UHGV virus genome: UHGV-0036483
From: a virus
Strand: one strand, 5' to 3'
Length of the DNA: 54,587 nt
In this document: positions 28,772-29,200 of the stretch, in pieces
Layout of the letters: each line of letters opens with the position of its first letter
Position numbering within the stretch: position 1 is the first letter of the stretch
The notes under the pieces: generated by a model
The model's input: only the letters and a program-made list of their open reading frames with translations
What the model was told of the DNA's origin: nothing
Database searches by the model: none
Program-made: the position numbers and the translations under genes

Positions 28772-29026
28772 TTACTTATGCGCCCCTTTAATCCCACAGT
28801 GTCTGTTATATTCCAGATGGTCGATAATTAACCACGCCTTTAAATCTTCGCTGAATAACCGCCAATCGGGGTTAATATCAAATTTATAACCGTAACCATC
28901 GCGTAATTTTTTGGGGGTGGCCTCTTTTCTCAGGAAAGCATTTAATAAAGCCTTGCCCTTTTTGATGATCCGGTCCTGTGCGTTTTTCTGTGCTTTCAGA
29001 TTTTTACCAATCGCTACCAATTTCAT
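28772..29026 (-). CDS. hypothetical basic protein (84 aa), reverse-strand cargo
   Basis: ORF track; second gene of a two-gene minus-strand unit. Confidence 0.5.
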   Translation of the reverse strand: MKLVAIGKNLKAQKNAQDRIIKKGKALLNAFLRKEATPKKLRDGYGYKFDINPDWRLFSEDLKAWLIIDHLEYNRHCGIKGAHK

Positions 29027-29044
29027 AACCCACCCCGCAATCCA

Positions 29045-29200
29045 TTAGTTGACCACTTTCAGGAAGAAATCACGGTACTCATTTTCCTTCGCGTTCATCA
29101 TGAATTGACCGTATTTGAATGCGTCATCAAAGCCTTTGACTATCGCCACCTCCACCTGTTCGAATGCGTTGTTCAGCATTACCACTACATAACGCTTCAT
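29045..29200 (-). CDS. hypothetical protein (51 aa), reverse-strand cargo
   Basis: AGGAGG RBS 5 nt upstream of ATG; below ORF-track cutoff. Confidence 0.45.
   Translation of the reverse strand: MKRYVVVMLNNAFEQVEVAIVKGFDDAFKYGQFMMNAKENEYRDFFLKVVN

Follow-up and report, generated by a model that had tools for sequence, protein, structure and literature searches.

Do two small genes that run against the late operon of a temperate coliphage form a toxin–antitoxin (TA) pair, or do they only look like one? The genes lie at positions 28,772 to 29,200 of UHGV-0036483, a viral genome of 54,587 nucleotides whose full length we call the window, between the genes for the tape-measure protein and for a gpM-type minor tail protein. 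An earlier note on this DNA had read them as a cassette with the layout of a toxin–antitoxin or other two-component accessory module. On a toxin–antitoxin reading the first gene (A51, 51 amino acids) would be the antitoxin and the second (T84, 84 amino acids) the toxin. In our analysis T84 has a trimmed RelE/ParE-type fold. Related phages keep T84 intact without A51, and the two are therefore probably not a classic toxin–antitoxin pair. The reading that we favour, with a probability of about 0.45, is that T84 is a stand-alone RNA-directed effector carried in a moron-type cassette, with A51 as a dispensable companion, and not one half of an addiction or abortive-infection system.

The window is an almost complete coliphage of the mEp021 (mEpimmI) group, a group of temperate, Nus-dependent phages to which it is 77–91% identical at the DNA level. 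The pair corresponds to mEp021_68 (A51) and mEp021_67 (T84), both deposited as hypothetical, and goes unmentioned in the paper that describes the mEpimmI group and in its supplements. The cassette is present in 33 of 5426 complete E. coli genomes, chromosomal every time, and in many of these RefSeq names T84 a "ParE family toxin-like protein".

The family and fold of T84

T84 (minus strand, 29026..28772, with its ATG at 29026 and its stop at 28774..28772) is a protein of 9.8 kDa, and it is indeed basic, as had been noticed from its translation, with a pI of 9.95 and a net charge of about +10. The earlier note had called neither protein recognisable, which for T84 proves wrong: it matches the Pfam family PF24732 (ParE_like) with 43.3 bits against a gathering cut-off of 24.4 (E = 3.7e-11), the match spanning residues 19–75 and profile positions 2–67 of 67. 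The same family is matched by 20 of 20 diverse T84 relatives, the best with E = 6e-19, and no Pfam family besides PF24732 appears for T84 or these relatives even at E ≤ 10. T84 is a member of PHROG 1525, whose annotation is functionless, and has no match in NCBIfam or PADLOC. Its close neighbourhood in sequence space is small: an exhaustive search of 1.84 billion representatives with the T84 profile returned 10 matches at E ≤ 1e-3. PF24732 is missing from a survey of BECR toxin families in Pfam published in 2025, and our literature search found no mention of the accession.

The AlphaFold model of T84, built on a 20-sequence alignment (pLDDT 88.9, pTM 0.77), is a confident one. It starts with a beta-hairpin, continues with a single helix of 15 residues and three strands, and closes with a short helix at the C-terminus. 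The viral models that match it best come from the jumbo phages fHe-Yen9-04 and RaK2, where the proteins are named "ParE-like toxin domain-containing" (TM 0.71–0.86). Against solved structures, nearly all the top matches are toxins of the RelE/ParE superfamily, with RNase-type toxins outscoring ParE toxins. Both hallmarks of the RelE/ParE (BECR) fold are thus found in the model, namely N-terminal helical structure on an antiparallel sheet of three to four strands and likeness to solved members, and we describe the predicted structure of T84 as a trimmed version of that fold. Profile and structure searches, which the earlier note had suggested, therefore lead to PF24732 and to a RelE/ParE-type fold.

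No homology to the canonical RelE, YoeB or ParE families was found at the level of sequence or profile. Searches of T84 against PDB sequences (phmmer and profile) gave chance matches only, and hhalign of the T84 family profile against E. coli RelE and YoeB gave a probability below 1%. Compared with the mRNA interferases RelE, YoeB, YafQ and HigB, T84 thus lacks significant sequence or profile similarity; it has one helix before the sheet where they have two, the TM stays below 0.5, it has no obligate antitoxin, and it is absent from plasmids. Within its own family K40, L41, R56 and H70 do not vary in any clade, while K23, G44 and N74 are almost invariant and Y73 is conserved for the most part. 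A BLASTP comparison with E. coli RelE gives a single local alignment, which is not significant (E = 13) and in which W55-R56-L57 falls on Y60-R61-L62. R61 is the transition-state arginine of RelE (PMC2807027). We take the placement of R56 on this residue as a lead, neither a test nor a proof.

Where does the family occur? All 31 members of the mEp021 group that we retrieved through gpM carry T84. Distant members come from 74 phage records, mostly of lytic jumbo myoviruses of about 350 kb that infect Escherichia, Klebsiella, Salmonella, Erwinia, Yersinia and Xanthomonas, and there the genes lie in non-structural gene arrays. One further relative (L010) stands directly upstream of a T7-type RNA polymerase gene and another (L011) three genes ahead of a T7 gp0.4 homologue; both places are early regions of T7-like phages. 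The family is also represented in phage Sortsne and in Kosakonia phage Kc237. The family had no member on 72,556 plasmids, and bacterial contigs taken at one genome per species contained no true relative, so that in the collections searched we found PF24732 only in phages and prophages. To a lytic phage addiction is useless, and classical RelE/ParE toxins are plentiful on plasmids; the presence of the family in lytic phages and its absence from plasmids therefore argue for a free-standing phage effector. The sole context that did not look like a phage was a 16-kb contig (L009, Logan ERR8084810), where a distant PF24732 member lies near a gene for a ParA/CbiA-type ATPase and is preceded by a 38-residue Cys-rich open reading frame; this may be a phage-plasmid or a plasmid-like element.

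The lytic-phage proteins closest to T84 in structure, those of Klebsiella phage RaK2 (H6X4G1) and Yersinia phage fHe-Yen9-04 (A0A2C9CWY5), also belong to the same Pfam family and have the K-L...R...H invariants in common with it. Their genes lie in long same-strand arrays of small genes, with no A51, whereas T84 sits in a terminator-bounded, reverse-strand cassette, its phage is temperate, and its N-terminus has an additional beta-hairpin that the Pfam domain does not cover.

A51 as a candidate antitoxin

A51 (minus strand, 29200..29045, with its ATG at 29200 and its stop at 29047..29045) ends 18 nt before the start of T84, and the two open reading frames share strand and frame. The earlier note had described this arrangement correctly, together with the perfect AGGAGG ribosome-binding site of A51, which we read from the sequence at 29211..29206, 5 nt from the ATG. 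In front of T84 the 18-nt spacer holds a G-rich, Shine–Dalgarno-like GGGGTGGG (29029..29036, minus strand), again as read from the sequence. Among relatives this spacer measures 17–21 nt, with one outlier of 37 nt. The layout is that of two adjacent, co-oriented small genes with the candidate antitoxin first and one terminator downstream, for which co-transcription is a reasonable expectation. Against 23 diverged alleles, with dS up to saturation, dN/dS is 0.02–0.07 for A51 and 0.03–0.24 for T84, so both are real genes under strong purifying selection.

A51 belongs to PHROG 29810, which carries no function, has no match in Pfam, NCBIfam or PADLOC, and was found solely at this locus of mEp021-group phages. 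The protein is near neutral (pI 6.1), and its AlphaFold model is a single 49-residue helix (pLDDT 82, pTM 0.41) that we judge uninformative. We found neither a neutralising or DNA-binding domain of antitoxin type nor an operator palindrome, features that are common among antitoxins and not universal. In most database entries the homologues of A51 (P0042–P0090) begin at a start codon further upstream in the same frame and come out at 68–76 residues. Such longer forms are ruled out in the window by a TGA that stands in frame upstream of the ATG (29257..29255); they are probably mis-called starts, and it is before the 51-residue start that the AGGAGG stands.

The comparison that bears most directly on partnership is that of 46 distinct IMG/VR cassettes. 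T84 is present in every one of them, A51 lies directly upstream of it in 44, and A51 was never seen without T84. The two exceptions are near-complete phage contigs of 53 kb (L020) and 57 kb (L028) from which A51 is wholly absent, the ATG of T84 occupying the position of the A51 ATG behind the same leader. A comparison of T84 between these two phages gives 7 codons with synonymous changes and 2 with non-synonymous ones, which shows that T84 is still constrained. Disrupted alleles tell the same story: on a 179-kb chromosomal contig (L186, an allele found on four contigs) Gln32 of A51 has become TAA, in another allele (L185, found on three contigs) a 1-nt deletion truncates A51 at 33 residues, and in both T84 is intact. 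There are thus four independent A51-null genomes (two absences, one nonsense mutation and one frameshift) in which the would-be toxin gene has been kept intact, and under purifying selection, without its cognate antitoxin.

The two genes also do not appear to evolve as partners. A single A51 allele is found beside T84 alleles whose identity to that of the window ranges from 61 to 89%, and pairwise distances of A51 and T84 are uncoupled (r = 0.06). No A51 homologue was found near the distant T84 relatives. Since all the cassettes go back to one syntenic origin, the linkage of A51 to T84 is weak evidence for function. Small genes downstream (F3 and F4) were considered as substitutes for A51 in the phages that lack it and were rejected, for they also accompany A51 in 18–19 other cassettes. 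In the neighbourhood of related prophages, a check that had been suggested from the start, T84 is thus constant and A51 dispensable, and a role of A51 as antitoxin is not supported by this comparison of sequences.

What the cassette may do

What, then, would such a cassette contribute? We picture an accessory cassette of the moron type that has been inserted where the tape-measure gene meets gpM in a temperate coliphage of the mEp021 group. Its transcription would run leftward, opposite to the late operon, and would start at a weak promoter in the spacer between gpM and A51. The transcript would probably be one short bicistronic mRNA, ending at a terminator that the cassette has in common with the tape-measure gene, from which A51 would be translated efficiently and T84 from its own G-rich site. 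T84 might then bind RNA, most plausibly mRNA on the ribosome in the manner of RelE and YoeB, and cut or block it by means of R56, H70 and K40, with the effect that host translation is tuned for the phage. A51 would be a group-specific small protein, co-expressed upstream, which may modulate or temper T84 and would be no obligatory antitoxin. In this picture we infer which RNA is targeted, what the conserved residues do and when the genes are expressed. The best functional analogy for a free-standing phage BECR protein such as T84 is RegB of T4, an RNase that the phage makes early and that inactivates mRNAs; its fold is RelE/YoeB-like, and no antitoxin is known for it (PMC3014915). Phage morons are autonomous units of promoter, gene and terminator lodged among the late genes of lambdoid phages. 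The cassette resembles them in separating two tail genes that stand side by side in many related tails, in its opposite orientation, in its own terminator and in the extra cargo genes, which vary among relatives; it departs from typical morons in that its promoter is a weak match to the consensus and in that T84 is universal in the group and not sporadic.

Several observations weigh against this reading and favour a genuine type II toxin–antitoxin system, in which A51 neutralises T84 and the prophage frees T84 on stress or superinfection, with abortive infection or retention of the prophage as the outcome. The order of the genes and their tight spacing fit such an operon, and so do the perfect Shine–Dalgarno sequence on A51 against a weaker one on T84, the fact that A51 was never seen without T84, the toxin-named Pfam family and toxin-like fold of T84, the close linkage of the pair and the purifying selection on both genes. 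Moreover, the cassette is bounded by a terminator and opposes the late operon, as morons expressed from prophages do. In the A51-null genomes, protection could come in trans, from a promoter that is silent, or from an N-terminal fragment of A51 that still works. Small helical antitoxins without a DNA-binding domain exist, PaaA2 of the PaaA2–ParE2 system being an example, so the domains missing from A51 do not exclude an antitoxin role. With PaaA2–ParE2 itself, which comes from a cryptic prophage of E. coli O157:H7, there is no sequence relation; our locus has no third regulator gene, A51 is dispensable in natural alleles, and its model is low in information. Against a toxin–antitoxin pair stand, above all, the four A51-null genomes, which include chromosomal contigs and hence lysogens, and the lack of a conserved partner beside the distant relatives, which sit in lytic phages. 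To these may be added an A51 allele that serves widely differing T84 alleles, an A51 that is not acidic and has neither an antitoxin nor a DNA-binding domain, the missing operator palindrome, the missing PADLOC and NCBIfam matches, the empty plasmids and a linkage whose single origin makes it a poor guide to function. We consider a genuine pair unlikely, though well worth keeping in mind. What survives of the toxin–antitoxin proposal is the family, the fold and the antitoxin-first gene order; the partnership is not supported by the comparison, given the A51-null genomes and the lone distant relatives, and the more general suggestion of some other accessory module fares better, a moron being the closer fit.

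The remaining explanations concern mostly the activity of T84. Rather improbable, to our minds, is a scenario in which PF24732 consists of phage-specific RelE/ParE-fold effectors that normally work without an antitoxin. Jumbo and T7-like lytic phages would use them early, as RNases for taking over the host, and the temperate phages of the mEp021 group would have one as a core accessory gene; A51 would be a recently acquired, still dispensable inhibitor or modulator, and the locus a toxin–antitoxin pair at its birth from a phage effector, not the reverse. T84 might also be a ParE-type effector that poisons or inhibits DNA gyrase or another DNA-transaction enzyme and so reshapes host replication and transcription during infection. 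The Pfam name suggests this but reflects likeness of fold and not an assay, and RNase-type toxins outscore ParE toxins in the structural matches. ParE toxins do not have the Arg/His/Lys set of the RNase-type toxins, while the conserved Arg, His and Lys residues that T84 carries on its sheet and C-terminal helix resemble RNase sites; we hold out little hope for a ParE-type activity. Much the same standing belongs to the idea that T84 is a catalytically inert toxin mimic for counter-defence, with A51 as an unrelated neighbouring moron. Such a mimic would either keep RelE-type abortive-infection toxins of the host off their target by sitting there itself or bind components of host toxin–antitoxin systems. 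It would account for a family that was found only in phages and prophages and that sits among early genes of lytic phages, where anti-defence genes cluster, for the tolerance of T84 without any antitoxin, and for a fold trimmed to a single helix before the sheet; it is purely speculative, however, our literature search found no known example, and the invariant R56, H70 and K40 look more like an active site than a passive surface. Could A51 and T84 simply be tail or tail-assembly components, given that they lie between the tape-measure and gpM genes and that T84 never fails in the group? Their strand is opposite to that of the tail operon, the cassette has its own terminator, and related tails with gpM 65–70% identical do without it; homologues occur in early regions of T7-like phages and in non-structural arrays of jumbo phages, and the fold is that of an RNase-type toxin. 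We regard a tail function as scarcely credible and reject it on strand, fold and homologue context. The stand-alone RNA-directed effector remains the reading that we prefer.

Work on RelE/ParE toxins usually deals with them as members of toxin–antitoxin pairs in bacteria and on plasmids, whereas PF24732, judged by its distribution, behaves as a phage-borne, partner-independent family of the same fold, catalogued and still uncharacterised. T84 is universal in a coliphage group that is common in the human gut. If it is an active RNase, it would be a compact tool of host manipulation common to very different phages, and the second free-standing RelE-fold enzyme of phages after T4 RegB; if A51 inhibits it, the locus would show how a toxin–antitoxin pair can arise. 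More generally, the locus cautions against naming a toxin–antitoxin system from layout and family name alone: by our comparison the cassette is real and ordinary in layout, and the label is one of resemblance, which A51-null genomes from nature contradict.

The junction, its transcription signals and the neighbouring cassettes

The position among tail genes had been read correctly. On one side of the cassette lies the gene for the tape-measure protein (26284..28632, plus strand; PF20155 TMP_3, E = 2e-49) and on the other that for the minor tail protein of the lambda gpM type (29370..29723, plus strand; PF05939, E = 1.5e-28), which is divergent from the cassette, separated from A51 by an intergenic spacer of 169 nt, and followed by the gpL and gpK genes. 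The 49 loci that come from other phages with a gpM 65–70% identical (L136–L184) have no T84, and the junction between tape-measure and gpM genes is there often closed to a few bases, while others hold inserts of 300–500 nt unrelated to T84 or A51. Junctions that are closed or differently filled, together with a T84 that is universal in the group, mark the junction as an insertion hot spot and T84 as a core gene of the group; comparison of these loci further suggests that the hot spot for accessory genes is general to this tail type.

On the 3' side of T84 the cargo is variable (L012–L056), with a protein of 56–71 residues in 20 cassettes, an acidic one of about 60 residues in 19 and a hydrophobic one of 95 residues in 5. 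The cargo of mEp021 (L001, 2670–4004) is a zinc-ribbon protein and a 157-residue protein. The cassette of the window carries none of these extra genes.

From where would the cassette be transcribed? The earlier note had given it a promoter of its own. A sigma-70 consensus scan of 29200–29370 reported none; by eye we find a weak sigma-70-like candidate on the minus strand (29242..29270), TTCACA at 29270..29265 and TATATA at 29247..29242 with 17 nt between them, which the scan passed over because the T at −7 is absent. The alignment shows the block kept in relatives, the A51-less phages included (TTCACT-17-TATACA). The claim of a promoter is weak. The same region contains no inverted repeats of at least 8 nt, hence no operator-like palindrome upstream of A51, and an Rfam search of the window gave no match. 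The spacer between gpM and A51 does contain a direct repeat, TACGCG-N4-TACGCG (TTTACGCGCTTCTACGCGAAAAATGAG; 29302–29320, minus strand), which is invariant in 4 of 4 aligned phages, again including those without A51, and which may serve to regulate either gpM or the cassette.

The cassette had also been described as bounded by terminators, and this holds on one side. Downstream, a hairpin at 28637..28659 forms a bidirectional intrinsic terminator common to the cassette (minus strand) and the tape-measure gene (plus strand), and the mEp021 and mEp010 records annotate a terminator at the matching position. None lies directly upstream, the nearest minus-strand terminator in that direction being at 29941..29924, past gpM, where it ends a second cassette. 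To get from the tape-measure gene to gpM, L and K, late transcription must read through the strong bidirectional hairpin at 28637..28659 and then through the cassette in antisense, a stretch of about 700 nt, which implies processive antitermination and possible transcriptional interference with the cassette.

The second reverse-strand cassette occupies 29924–30866 of the window, between gpM with a 73-residue open reading frame on one side and gpL on the other. Its minus-strand genes encode proteins of 76 (30866..30636), 115 (30623..30276) and 82 residues (30266..30018), the last with a weak KilAC/ANT antirepressor domain (E = 4e-6), and are followed by the terminator just mentioned; mEp021 carries this block too (genes 71–74). 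Finally, just upstream of the tape-measure gene, a 124-residue open reading frame on the minus strand (25752–26126) begins with a lipoprotein-type N-terminus (...LLLAGC...). Its matches to BamE and DUF7738 fall below threshold, and from its sequence it may be a lipoprotein moron, serving for example in superinfection exclusion.
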